Under the pieces are notes generated by a model. The model saw only the letters and a program-made list of their open reading frames with translations, had not been told where the DNA came from and did no database searches. From a virus (Duplodnaviria > Heunggongvirae > Uroviricota > Caudoviricetes): a DNA stretch of 9,233 nt. The position numbers were made by a program, and so were the translations under genes. The stretch spans positions 1-9,233 of the IMG/VR virus record IMGVR_UViG_2630968558_000007, one strand, 5' to 3'. This document shows positions 4,251 to 9,233 of the stretch, in pieces; the first letter of the stretch is position 1; every line of letters starts with the position of its first letter.

Positions 4251-6173
4251 ATGACAGACATTACAGCCAATGTGATTGTATCGATGCCTTCGCAACTCTT
4301 CACTATGGCACGTTCTTTTAAAGCCGTAGCCAATGGCAAAATTTATATAGGAAAAATTGACACTGACCCGGTAAATCCTGAAAACCAGATTCAGGTTTAT
4401 GTGGAGAATGAGGATGGTTCTCACGTTCCTGTTTCACAACCAATCATCATTAACGCTGCTGGATATCCGGTATATAACGGACAGATTGCCAAGTTCGTAA
4501 CTGTGCAAGGCCACTCTATGGCTGTTTATGATGCATATGGTGCGCAGCAGTTCTATTTTCCTAATGTGCTGAAGTACGACCCGGATCAGTTAAGGCAGCA
4601 GATTGAAGACCCTGATGGGGCAACCAAATATCCCGCATTGCAGATTTCTCGCTGGCGTGATGATTTAGACGTGCGTGGATGGGGAGTATTCCCGGATGGT
4701 ACAGATGTTACTGCTAAACTGTGTGAGGCATTGGATTATGCTAACGGTGATTATTCACAATTAGTTGAGTATGGGAAAAACAGAAAATCATTGCATATCC
4801 CTCCAGGCGATTATGTCGTTGATATGACCAAGCTGACTGGCATTCATGCTTCTGCTGGTCGCTTTGTGATCCGCTGTAACGTTGATTGTGTTGGCCGAAT
4901 CCCTAACGGGGATTTCCTAATCCTTCATAGTAAATCTATAAATGTAACTGGCCTTTCATGTAAATCGTTATACATTAGAGGGCTACAGTTTTCTATTATC
5001 TCGAACATTGATACGACCGGCGATATAAGATTTTTTTCATCAGACGCATACACTCTGCCTGGGTTGGTTGTATGGGGTGGCGGGAGTTATTGGAATCATT
5101 TTGTACGCATCAAAACAGGTACTGCGGCAGGTGGTGGCAGATTCATAATTGACATCTCTGATGGATCTATAAATCAAAATACATTTGAGCAGCTTTGCGG
5201 TGGTGGTCTGATCATAACTGGATCAGGTTTTAGTCGCCAGACCGGTGCTCCGTATGAGGGGAACGCAAACACATTTATAGGTCTTGACACATCGGGAAGC
5301 GGCGATTATTTGCTCTATAACAATAGCACCCCAAATCAGCATAATGTTGTGATAGGTTTGTATGGCGAGGTTACGGGCAATGGGAAAATACGTGGGCCGT
5401 GGACCATACTTGGCGCGCGTGCGCAATTTGGGGGCTGGGCCTCAACCATGAGCCCCATGAATACCATATTAGGGACAGACCCTACAGCAGGCTCACAGGG
5501 AGGAGAGACGTTCAGTGTCTCCGGTTCTAATCTTTGCCCTTCTGGAGATTGGTCGGTTATTGAAGGAGTCTACGGAGCACCGATTGACTTTTCCCTTTTA
5601 ACTATACCGAACGAACGAAAGGTTGGTTCTGACCCTAATGAACCATCTGGCTGCGGTAGATGGTTTGGAGTCACTAACGCATCTCAACGTTGCAGAATAA
5701 CCCTAAATTTAACTAAAACACAGTCAGGTTTCATTCGTGGAGCTTTTTACTTTAAAGGCGACACACCGCTTGAGATAGCTATAGAAGCTCAAGATGGTAC
5801 TAATACCATCTATATGCCAGTTAATATGTTCTACGATATGGGTGTTGGAGGGTGGAAGTTATACAAAGTTTCAGCGCCAACCAACGACAAAAGTAAAGCA
5901 TACAGATTAAGGATTACAGTTGAATCCGGAATGAGCGCTTATGTTGGAGGAGCGTATTTTAGCCAGTATAACGGAACCTTTCTTCCAGTATTCTGCGGAT
6001 GGGAGAAAGTAAAAATGAGATCTAGCGTAAAGCCTACTGTGACAGAGAACACAGGTTCTTTCCCAATCGGCTTGGTGTCCTACAGAACATCTCCAGCAAC
6101 ATATCCTTCCGACCCTACTGTCCAATGGGTGTGGAATGGAAGTACATGGGGGATTGTGAATATTTCTGCCTAA
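4251..6173 (+). CDS. tailspike protein (P22 gp9 / Sf6-type head-binding domain fused to a divergent receptor-binding domain)
   Basis: First ~113 aa ([50 protein letters not shown]…NVLKYDPDQ) are near-identical to the Sf6/HK620/P22 tailspike head-binding domain as recalled. The remaining ~525 aa are Gly/Ser/Thr/Asn-rich and consistent with a beta-helix receptor-binding domain. SD GGAG at 4239-4242. Confidence 0.9.
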
Positions 6174-6209: not shown

Positions 6210-7307
6210 TTATCTTGGAATATTTTTCTCGATATATTTATAGCTTAGTAGTGCAAAAGCTACAGATGTTATAAATACAATAAAAATAAACGAGAAGCTT
6301 TTTGATAAATCAGCCATCCCAAGCCAATCTATCATCTTAAAGCATAATATAAACGTAATTGGATGAACTAAATACAAAGAGTATGAAGCATCACCAATCA
6401 TGATGAAAATACGTGGTATTTTGATGTTGTCTTGTATGTAGTCAGAGCATGCAGTAAAGCATGCAAACATTATGCAAAAATATTTCCCTGAATGAAAAAT
6501 CCCATGCCCAGCATCAAACTGTGTTATGTAAGCCCATACAGGGATTATGATTCCAATCGAAATTAATGGTATTGCAATCCTTTTGTCTCTAATTGAAAAG
6601 TTACCACTTTTGTATAGGATAGCAATAATCGCACCGAAGACAAACTCCCAAATCAGGCTTTGCATGGTTAAATTTATATATCCTAAACCTTCAATTTTTG
6701 GTCTGTCGAATACACCCGCAATAGATGGCAAAGCTAACAGTGTAATGAAAAACCATAATATATAAAATGTATACCTAAACTTCCCCAGCGCTATTCCAAT
6801 GGCGCAAACTAAATAAAAATATATTTCATAATTGAGGGTCCATCCAACGAACAATGATGGAGGCCCAAAGTATATAGGTGACTCAGTGTTTAGTGGAATG
6901 AAAAGCAAACCTTTGATTATGTTTGTTAATTCAAATGAGCTAGATGATTGGTTATATGAAAACCCATGCATTAAAGATAAATCAACATTTTTAACAATGA
7001 CTATATATGCAATAGTCATGATGAAATATAGAGGCCAAACTCTTAAGAAACGTTTTTTAATAAACTTTATCAAATCATTGCTTTGGTAGCTATGAGACGT
7101 ATAAATTATGATAAAACCACTAATGATGAAAAATAAATCAACTCCGAATGCACCAGGCCAAAATAATCGCTGAGCCAGCCATTCATATTCTGTTCCTTTC
7201 AAAAAATCCCTTGCATGGCAAAGTACGACAAGCATAGCTGCAATAGCCCTAAGCGCCTGTATATACTGAAGGTTATTCTTTCTTGGTGGACTGTTATCGA
7301 TTTCCAA
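6210..7307 (-). CDS. acyltransferase-3 family integral membrane protein (O-antigen acetyltransferase, Oac-like serotype-conversion candidate)
   Basis: 365-aa polytopic hydrophobic protein with acyltransferase-3 signatures: N-terminal LRAIAAMLVVLCH, FGVDLFFIISGF, C-terminal SYSLYLVHP. Sits between tailspike and integrase where Sf6 carries oac. Visibly AT-rich. Apparent TTG start at 7307 with AGGTG 4 nt upstream. Confidence 0.8.
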   Translation of the reverse strand: MEIDNSPPRKNNLQYIQALRAIAAMLVVLCHARDFLKGTEYEWLAQRLFWPGAFGVDLFFIISGFIIIYTSHSYQSNDLIKFIKKRFLRVWPLYFIMTIAYIVIVKNVDLSLMHGFSYNQSSSSFELTNIIKGLLFIPLNTESPIYFGPPSLFVGWTLNYEIYFYLVCAIGIALGKFRYTFYILWFFITLLALPSIAGVFDRPKIEGLGYINLTMQSLIWEFVFGAIIAILYKSGNFSIRDKRIAIPLISIGIIIPVWAYITQFDAGHGIFHSGKYFCIMFACFTACSDYIQDNIKIPRIFIMIGDASYSLYLVHPITFILCFKMIDWLGMADLSKSFSFIFIVFITSVAFALLSYKYIEKNIPR

Positions 7308-7442: not shown

Positions 7443-7829
7443 ATGGGATTCCCGAGTCCAGCACAAGACTACGTTGAAGAGCGCATATCGCTCGACAAGT
7501 GCATCATAAGCAGGCCAGCGGCAACGTACTTCATGCGAGCGGGTGCGACGCACTACCGGGAAGGTATCCTGAATGGCGCGCTGCTGGTTGTGGATGCTTC
7601 GCTATCACCATGCGACGGCTCATTACTTGTTTGCAGAATGGAAGGTGAGCTGAGGATTAAGCGATACCGCAAATCACCCAAGGTTCACCTGGAAGATTTG
7701 CAGACAGGAAGAAGGGAGGCTATACCTCTGCACGATGACGGAACGAGCCCTGATGCGATATTTGGCGTAATCACCTACATCATCAACGATGCGCGGACGG
7801 GTGAGTTTGATGATTGCCCGGTGATGTGA
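7443..7829 (+). CDS. UmuD'-like protein (S24 LexA/UmuD-family C-terminal domain, N-terminally pre-truncated, predicted non-catalytic)
   Basis: 128 aa. MGFPSPAQDYVEERISLD…ATYF… aligns with E. coli UmuD from Gly25 onward (UmuD: C|GFPSPAADYVEQRIDLN…SATYF). The UmuD GDSM catalytic-Ser motif is replaced by ATHY; the Lys-containing region is retained (ELRIKRY vs EFTVKKL). Strong SD, LexA box upstream, no umuC-like gene in the window. Confidence 0.8.
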   Translation: MGFPSPAQDYVEERISLDKCIISRPAATYFMRAGATHYREGILNGALLVVDASLSPCDGSLLVCRMEGELRIKRYRKSPKVHLEDLQTGRREAIPLHDDGTSPDAIFGVITYIINDARTGEFDDCPVM

Positions 7830-7899: not shown

Positions 7900-9057
7900 T
7901 TAGCCCACCTTTTCATCAAGCCAATCCGCCCACCACTGCATCATCTCCCTGCGCTTATCGAGATACTGAGCATGGTTGTAAATTCCACGCACAGATCCGC
8001 CATTGGCATGTGCCAGTTGCACTTCAATAGCATCAGCAGGCCATTCGTGCTCGTTCATAATCGTACTGAATTCATGCCTGAATCCGTGACCGCTTTCCAG
8101 ACCCTCATAGCCGATTTGTTTGATCACAAGTAATACCGCGTTCTCGCAGATTGGCTTCTTCTTATCATTACGCCCGGCAAAAACAAACTCTGATACTGGT
8201 TTGGTGATGGAGCTTAACGTAGTGAGAAGTTCAACCACTTGGTCCGACATCGGGACCACATGAATCTTGCGTCCCTTCATCACACTGGCGTCGATAGTGA
8301 TAATCCTGTTTTCAAAATCGACGTTCTTCCATAGCATAGAACGAAGCTCTTTCGTTCTTAGGGCTGTGTAGCGTAAAACTTTGGTCGCAATGAGCGATAC
8401 GATACTTCCTGAAAATGTTGCCAGTGCTTTGTTGAATGTCGGGATCTGGTCTGCAGGAAGAAACGGGAAGTTCTTCTTGCGGTATCCCTTCATGGCGTCA
8501 GCAAGATCAGGTGCCGGGTTATATTTAGCCCTTCCGGTGACAATAGCGTAACGGAAAACCTCGCCGCATCTTCTGCGTGCTTTGTTGGCTCGTTCCATTG
8601 CACCGCGATCTTCAAACCTGCGGATTACTTCAAGAAGTTGCATCGGCTCAATATCCTGAATTTCAAGACCGCCGATGATGGGTAAAATGTCGTCATCAAA
8701 CATTTTGGCAAGTTCAGTCGTATACCCTACAGACCAGACTTGCTTCTTGTGCTCGTACCATTCCTTGTAAATGGCGCTAAAGGAATTGTTGTTAGACGAA
8801 GCCTTTTTCGCCTTTACCGGATCGATGCCAACCGAGATGTCTTTCCTCGCAGTCCATGCTTTATCCCTTGCCTCTTGCAAAGTCATAAGCGGATATTTTC
8901 CGACGGTCAGGATTTTCTCCTTACCGTCAATCTTGTAGCGAAGCTGCCATACCTTTTTCCCTGACACAGGGACATAAAGGTACAGGCCATTACCATCGAG
9001 AAGGCGGTATGGTTTTTCTTTCGGCTTTGCTGCTTCAATCTGCTTAACGGTGAGCAT
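7900..9057 (-). CDS. int: P4-type tyrosine integrase (IntS-like, tRNA-Arg-associated)
   Basis: Product from ATG 9057 is 385 aa, MLTVKQIEAAKPKEKPYRLLDGNGLYLYVPVSGKKVWQLRY… (P4-type N-terminal arm-binding domain), with C-terminal catalytic motifs HGFRHEF and RGIYNHAQY. The track ORF extends to GTG 9093, a less likely start. Adjacent to a tRNA-Arg 3' end, like E. coli K-12 intS next to argW. Confidence 0.9.
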   Translation of the reverse strand: MLTVKQIEAAKPKEKPYRLLDGNGLYLYVPVSGKKVWQLRYKIDGKEKILTVGKYPLMTLQEARDKAWTARKDISVGIDPVKAKKASSNNNSFSAIYKEWYEHKKQVWSVGYTTELAKMFDDDILPIIGGLEIQDIEPMQLLEVIRRFEDRGAMERANKARRRCGEVFRYAIVTGRAKYNPAPDLADAMKGYRKKNFPFLPADQIPTFNKALATFSGSIVSLIATKVLRYTALRTKELRSMLWKNVDFENRIITIDASVMKGRKIHVVPMSDQVVELLTTLSSITKPVSEFVFAGRNDKKKPICENAVLLVIKQIGYEGLESGHGFRHEFSTIMNEHEWPADAIEVQLAHANGGSVRGIYNHAQYLDKRREMMQWWADWLDEKVG

Positions 9058-9218
9058 GGGTAAAAATCCGGTGGGTAAAATTATTTTATCCACTTTTTAC
9101 CCGTCATGGAGTGCGGCTGTCAACGATCTGACGCGAACCATTACGAACTGTGAATCTACGGAAGGCTTGATATTCAGGGGATTTTGCGGACTGGTACGGA
9201 TGGGAGCGAACTGATAAA

Positions 9219-9233
9219 TGGTGTCCCCTGCAG
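9219..9233 (-). tRNA. argW: 3' terminal segment of tRNA-Arg (argW-like), cut by the window edge; attachment-site core or end of the intact tRNA gene
   Basis: Reverse complement of 9219-9233 is CTGCAGGGGACACCA, matching the 3' end (…TTCGATTCCTGCAGGGGACACCA) of E. coli tRNA-Arg(CCU) argW as I recall it. Same orientation as int and about 160 bp upstream of its start. Only 15 nt are visible. Confidence 0.5.

Follow-up and report, generated by a model that had tools for sequence, protein, structure and literature searches.

The DNA analysed here (the window, 9,233 nucleotides) is the int end, attL, of a P22-like (Lederbergvirus-type) prophage at argW, of the same type as Sf6, HK620 and KplE1. Its last 334 bases share 97-99% identity with phages Sf6, HK620, CUS-3, HZ41 and others. 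Of 5426 complete E. coli genomes, 1900 contain its last 234 bases, each time in the setting 'intS | tRNA-Arg'; the element is thus a member of a very common IntS/argW module. The remaining genes of the window comprise a P22-type DNA-transfer protein, an Arc/Mnt/Ant immI region, a tailspike, an O-acetyltransferase and a UmuD-like protein. The tailspike (4251-6173, plus strand) has a known-family match only for its N-terminal head-binding residues 1-229, and its receptor-binding part looks divergent; the adjoining O-acetyltransferase (6210-7307, minus strand) is a candidate O-antigen modifier like Sf6 oac. Between the O-acetyltransferase and int lies a 128-aa UmuD-like open reading frame (7443-7829, plus strand; phrog_811, 1.2e-47), which looks like a moron; the prophage of E. 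coli UMNK88 that has the same attL lacks it.

The features that concern the repeats upstream of int are as follows, with RDF denoting the recombination directionality factor (TorI or HkaC).

7900-9057, minus strand: intS, a 385-aa tyrosine integrase (RefSeq 'prophage integrase IntS'), the proposed reader of the repeats
8680-8687, plus strand: an exact GGGTAAAA within int, on codons for I-L-P-I
9058-9066, plus strand: repeat GGGTAAAAA, an inverted arm-type copy in the int sense, abutting the int ATG; attP repeat_region in the HK620 record
9067-9069, minus strand: int ribosome-binding site GGA, annotated in X59553, between two inverted copies
9073-9080, plus strand: repeat GGGTAAAA, an inverted arm-type copy reading TTTTACCC in the int sense, in the 5' UTR; attP repeat_region in the HK620 record
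9084-9091, minus strand: degenerate arm-type copy GGATAAAA (GGATAAA), 11 bp past the first copy, spanning the transcription start T 9088 / A 9087
9094-9102, minus strand: repeat reading TTTTTACCC on the plus strand and GGGTAAAAA on the minus strand, published as P'1; holds the PintS -10 box TAAAAA (9094-9099)
9118-9123, minus strand: PintS -35 box TTGACA (PMC2951348 and window sequence)
9125-9152, minus strand: predicted RDF (TorI) block I3-I5, three GTTCG/GATCG-type sites; published as 2464472-2464499, that is, -95 to -68
9188-9215, minus strand: predicted RDF (TorI) block I1-I2, ATCAGTTC, 12 nt, ACCAGTCC; published as 2464409-2464436, that is, -158 to -131
9218-9233, minus strand: attL core CTGCAGGGGACACCAT, 16 nt, the 3' end of tRNA-Arg argW and the crossover region

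Read in the int sense, the arm runs from the core CTGCAGGGGACACCAT through two GTTCG/GTCCG repeats, three GTTCG/GATCG repeats, TTGACA and an 18-nt spacer to GGGTAAAAA, and from there through GT, GGATAAAAT, AA, TTTTACCC, ACCGGA and TTTTTACCC to the ATG. The same 16-nt core is given in PMC2951348 and is annotated as the attP core in HK620 and Sf6; in the window it forms the argW 3' end and adjoins the int 5' end (9233-9218, minus strand). ARAGORN detected no tRNA in the window, because argW is represented there only by a 16-nt stub.

The IntS protein of the window is 99% identical to E. coli IntS and has the domain structure of an IntS-type integrase with an N-terminal arm DNA-binding domain: Arm-DNA-bind_3 (residues 2-86, 2.1e-25), Phage_int_M and Phage_integrase. 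A listing of open reading frames extends the gene upstream to GTG 9093. The preliminary description favoured ATG 9057 as the true start on the grounds that the repeats lie between the two candidate codons; the start itself is well supported, but by other evidence. The GTG at 9093 is upstream of the mapped transcription start at 9088/9087 (-31/-30; see below), the in-frame GTG at -36 occurs only in Escherichia/Shigella sequences, the Pfam arm-binding domain opens at residue 2 of the ATG-initiated protein, and HK620, Sf6, X59553 and RefSeq K-12 all annotate the same ATG. No start codon stands at -36 in the Klebsiella phages or in the other loci from Enterobacterales (17 of the 24 examined in the genome scan), and most loci that lack it have an in-frame stop at -30. 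For annotation, the int start is therefore fixed at ATG 9057.

Counted from this ATG in the int sense, the arm-type copies comprise two direct copies (-45 and -34) followed by two inverted ones (-22 and -7). Three of these, at 9058-9066, 9073-9080 and 9094-9102, had been recognised at the outset, and both their coordinates and their orientations are confirmed, as is their excess over chance (see below). They had also been placed exactly between ATG 9057 and GTG 9093, which is true of the first two and incorrect for the third, since on the coding strand that copy directly precedes the GTG. The count of three was itself too low, in that the degenerate GGATAAAA at 9084-9091, which overlaps the GTG codon at 9091-9093, had been missed. 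Because the position of this second site is occupied by GGGTAAA in many genera and the layout is conserved, we count the predicted P' sites beside int as four, not three. The HK620 GenBank record annotates the equivalents of window positions 9057-9082 and 9082-9103 as attP repeat_regions.

The further exact copy within int, at 8680-8687, was rejected as an att site. In HK620 it reads AGGTAAAA, and K-12-type loci lack it; it does not change to GGGCATA along with the arm sites of the sister subfamily described below; and it falls outside the 220-bp attL that recombines in vitro; it is probably coincidental. The HK620 record labels the equivalent position an attP repeat, despite the AGGTAAAA found there.

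The stretch of the window that begins with the -35 box and ends with the int ATG matches the KplE1/CPS-53 attL of E. coli K-12 MG1655 at every base, and in that identical sequence the feature is already known and has been characterised experimentally. According to Panis et al. (2010, PLoS Genet, PMC2951348), the K-12 promoter PintS (TTGACA / TAaAAa) overlaps attL, five TorI sites are arranged in two blocks, and TAAA is found in every IntS arm-type P' site; the -10 box is overlapped by P'1. Primer extension, as reported in the same paper, placed the intS transcription start at T 2464536 and A 2464537. The attL clone of PMC2951348 extends from 2464344 to 2464630, or -223 to +64, which puts the A of the ATG at 2464567. 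The mapped start then falls at -31/-30, on T 9088 / A 9087 of the window, and the base identities agree. Transferred in this way, the TorI blocks fall exactly on the GTTCG-type repeats, and the coordinate transfer is therefore validated. The window would thus have all five TorI sites, with both blocks at the published offsets on the stretch that separates the core from the -35 box, their positions being predicted from the spacing, which is identical to that in K-12; I4 and I5 abut the -35 box. The TAAA-bearing arm-type sites are likewise in place, with P'1 over the PintS -10 box in a sequence identical to K-12. The Int sites accordingly overlap the core promoter, with the -10 box in site 1 and +1 in site 2, and the promoter and the transcription start both lie within the att arm. 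This is the arrangement of negatively autoregulated, tRNA-associated integrase genes, in which attL overlaps Pint.

The regulatory consequences of this arrangement have been measured in K-12. In PMC2951348, IntS brings the expression of pattL-gfp down about 5-fold, from 6368 to 1270 units, and PintS is repressed to a similar extent (about 5-fold) by TorI via I4 and I5 beside the -35 box, a repression that is abolished by mutation of the TorI sites. Changing TAAA to ATTT in single P' sites left the promoter repressed, and the mutational test could not tell P'1 apart from the -10 box (PMC2951348). For these two reasons the operator is still assigned by inference, and the copy at 9094-9102 is the likely operator for autorepression. 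A text search of PMC2951348 returned no P'2 to P'5 labels. The K-12 results would probably carry over to the window prophage, in which one or more of the copies may act as the operator and the fourth site may also be functional.

A consensus promoter scan did not list TTGACA-18-TAAAAA and listed a weaker candidate, ATGACG-16-AATAAT, instead; the published promoter is passed over because the scan demands T at position 6 of the -10 hexamer, and TAAAAA ends in A. The 1991 Sf6 record X59553.1 (L165) annotates the same ATGACG/AATAAT int promoter (window 9080-9107) that the scan chose. This predicted promoter differs from the experimentally mapped one and was rejected, the mapped start at 9088/9087 being upstream of its -10 box.

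Arm-type sites are expected on both sides of a core, and the preliminary description had proposed a search of the other prophage end and of related argW prophages; the motif is present in both (HK620, Sf6 and UMNK88 for the former, more than 12 genera for the latter). The P-arm comparison was made on HK620, Sf6 and UMNK88, the attR of the window's own prophage being outside the window. HK620, Sf6, two Klebsiella phages and one further attP-form locus (L157) have two GGGTAAA-type copies, 12 bp apart, directly after the stop codon of the RDF gene, so that the motif is repeated in the P arm, on the attR side, beside that gene; the copies of HK620 and Sf6 are exact. The complete UMNK88 prophage has an attL 100% identical to the window and a pair of exact copies at attR (42241 and 42253 of L166), 60-79 bp before the second core copy. 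Of the eight exact copies in this 50-kb stretch, five fall within the two att arms. The gene content beside int in UMNK88 differs from that of the window. Loci in the attL form, which have the tRNA in place of the P arm, have essentially no P-arm copies.

Excision in vitro also bears on the extent of the arms. The attL primer of the substrates used in PMC3509656 ends at the intS ATG, which brings all four copies into the substrate, and the attR primer ends at the first P-arm copy. A K-12-type 220-bp attL with all four copies recombines.

A scan of species-representative genomes uncovered IntS relatives, 57-99% identical to IntS, in more than 12 genera, with int beside argW in Citrobacter, Dryocola, Pantoea, Edwardsiella, Rouxiella, Tatumella, Xenorhabdus, Erwinia, Serratia, Kluyvera and Izhakiella. 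These relatives share a common layout, with TTGAC at about -66, a direct pair of copies at -45/-34 (11 bp apart) and an inverted pair at -22/-7 (15 bp apart). The first copy is at -45/-44 in all relatives, the TTGAC of the -35 box is invariant in 26 diverse relatives, and the spacers between the copies diverge while the positions of the copies hold. The equivalent of the second site (9084-9091) is GGGTAAA in Pantoea, Edwardsiella, Erwinia, Serratia and others, and GGGTAAA or GAGTAAA across the other genera.

Several of these loci depart from the common layout or context. Two Mixta loci (L018, L148) have an IntS relative with a full four-site P' arm and no recognisable argW T-arm upstream; these elements may be integrated at another target or may lie in a rearranged context. 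Three loci (L019, L022 and L034) have only three P' copies and lack the 15-bp stretch between the inverted TTTTACCC repeats, which is consistent with a repeat-mediated deletion. In one of them, L034 (E. whittamii), the integrase match is cut to residues 1-159. Another, L022 (Xenorhabdus hominickii), has a 9-bp unit, AAATCCCTT, in tandem in about 9 copies between the RDF blocks, roughly 60-170 nt upstream of int; in attL, this expansion would lengthen the arm by about 70 bp. The RDF-type repeats of the relatives become GTAAAC, GTTACC, GAACC or TCCG classes, independently of the arm motif.

A diverged subfamily, 57-72% identical to IntS, has GGGCATA/TATGCCC in place of each copy at the same positions (int upstream regions of L017, L025-L028, L032, L059 and L097-L140). 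Its first copy is GGGCATATT and still supplies the -10 box, CATATT, so that the arrangement of site 1 over the -10 box persists after the switch; the CGGA at the ribosome-binding site is conserved in both subfamilies. The switch extends to the other arm, since eight attP-form contigs of this sister subfamily (L107, L109, L120, L122, L124, L125, L128 and L140) have two GGGCATA copies at the same place in the P arm. Among attP-form loci the class of the P sites and that of the P' sites are concordant in 13 of 13. That six dispersed copies change together requires one common trans-acting reader.

Which protein is that reader? We consider it very probable that the heterobivalent tyrosine integrase IntS uses the repeats as its P' arm-type sites in the attL arm, and that the same sites autoregulate int. 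Arm-type sites and an autoregulatory operator had been offered initially as alternatives; both functions are supported, and both are published for the identical K-12 sequence (PMC2951348). IntS binding to the arm sites is cited in that paper as previously characterised.

Other readings of the repeats can be weighed against the same evidence. The repeats share their arm with the RDF sites, and TorI too represses PintS, which could suggest that they bind the directionality factor, or a host factor such as IHF, and not integrase. The TorI sites, however, have been mapped to GTTCG/GATCG/GTCCG at other coordinates, and it is mutation of those sites that ends TorI repression; moreover, PMC2951348 names the TAAA sites IntS arm-type sites. 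The RDF-type repeats also vary independently of the GGGTAAA/GGGCATA class, L107 and L109 combining GTTC-type repeats with GGGCATA arms. Since the two kinds of repeat vary on different patterns, it is the integrase, not the RDF, that reads the motif, and we regard an RDF or host-factor role for the repeats as highly improbable.

An explanation with no protein reader at all, in which the repeats reflect nothing but the composition of the promoter and 5' UTR (an A/T-rich -10 box, leader or UP-like sequence) or an mRNA hairpin for int translation, can call on the fact that one copy is the -10 box, that GGATAAAA and TTTTACCC make an inverted repeat, and that the GGA ribosome-binding site lies between inverted copies. 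The mRNA from the mapped start nevertheless shows no significant structure (z = 0.36; 125 of 200 shuffles fold at least as well), and a role of the inverted copies in mRNA structure was rejected on this basis. Neither a -10 nor a leader role would account for the two P-arm copies, which lie some 250 bp away, past the core, where there is no int promoter, or for the joint switch of six copies to GGGCATA; this explanation appears just as improbable as an RDF role. Least probable of all is chance recurrence of an A-rich 8-mer, in spite of the shortness of the motif and the additional copy within int at 8680. The 9,233-base window contains 4 copies of GGGTAAAA against 0.30 expected, a number reached by 0 of 200 shuffles, and when a look-elsewhere test asked for any 8-mer present in triplicate, on whichever strand, inside 45 bp, only 13 of 2000 dinucleotide shuffles contained one. 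The conservation of the motif positions across genera effectively refutes this possibility.

If IntS is indeed the reader, the following sequence of events can be proposed. The N-terminal arm-binding domain of IntS would recognise GGGTAAA at the four copies beside int and the two in the P arm, while its catalytic domain would bind the core CTGCAGGGGACACCAT. Bridging of arm and core, together with TorI and IHF, would then build the intasome for integration and excision. As int would be transcribed away from the core from a sigma-70 promoter within the arm (-35 box 9123-9118, -10 box 9099-9094, start 9088/9087), with site 1 on the -10 box and site 2 on +1, bound IntS would block RNA polymerase and the level of int would be kept low and self-limited (repression of about 5-fold). 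TorI bound at the adjacent I4/I5 would also repress, through the -35 box.

This organisation can be compared with several known systems. The KplE1 (CPS-53) attL of E. coli K-12 has the same DNA from the -35 box to the ATG, the same core, the same spacing of the TorI blocks, the same -35/-10 boxes and the same integrase family; it differs from the window by a few substitutions in the region of the TorI sites. KplE1 is a 10-kb remnant, whereas the window is a segment of an apparently complete-type P22-like prophage. Work by Panis et al. (2007, JBC 282:21798; 2010, Virology 404:41) is said to describe the arm-type P' sites of KplE1 IntS and the autoregulated PintS. The attP regions of HK620 and Sf6 (AF335538, AF547987, X59553) are 97.6-99.1% identical to the window over 334 bp and have the same int start, and the HK620 annotation marks the same stretches as attP repeat_regions, plus a P-arm pair. 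These records represent the attP form, in which hkaC/torI and the P arm are joined across the core, whereas the window contains the attL half only.

The int gene of satellite phage P4 shares with IntS transcription away from the att core and the binding of Int at similar positions relative to its own start. Two proteins, Int itself and the RDF Vis, down-regulate the gene (Piazzolla et al., cited in PMC2951348), and the two directionality factors differ in their mode of action: for Vis the proposed target is the int mRNA, whereas TorI is a DNA-binding factor that acts at the -35 box (PMC2951348). P4 also differs from the window in its arm motif and its tRNA target. Phage lambda Int is likewise heterobivalent, with its N-terminal domain on arm sites at both sides of the core (P1, P2, P'1-P'3) that are bridged in the intasome, although the number, spacing and orientation of the lambda arm sites differ from those of IntS. 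In lambda, it is the 3' end of int that faces attP, and the promoters used for int are PI and PL, with none inside the arm, and the Xis sites are in the P arm, as against the P' arm location of the TorI sites in KplE1-type attL.

What distinguishes the integrases of the two motif subfamilies? Within the N-terminal domain, the columns that cleanly split the classes include, among others, 23 (N/D vs G/A), 38 (Q vs R), 49 (I/V vs T), 51 (T vs V) and 54 (K vs P/S/T), and, judged from their sequence positions, these residues probably lie in beta-strands. The link between N-domain residues and arm class is a correlation confounded by phylogeny and is no proof of contact. We tentatively suggest, as a possibility with somewhat less than even support, that the IntS family comprises two discrete arm-recognition classes, in which six sites (two P and four P') switch between GGGTAAA and GGGCATA together with a few N-domain residues. 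A comparison of the two classes was not found in the accessible literature.

For annotation of this and similar elements, positions 9058-9233 should be regarded as a functional attL arm with an internal promoter rather than as spacer. The underlying design is published and not new: the recombination sites double as an operator, and the integrase is thereby held at the narrow concentration needed for excision. The additions made here are small, namely the fourth site, the conservation of the layout over more than 12 Enterobacterales genera, and the joint switch of six sites to GGGCATA in the sister subfamily. If the N-domain residues named above are the recognition code, a few substitutions could reprogramme arm specificity and thereby also how far argW elements in the same host, and their autoregulation, are orthogonal to one another.
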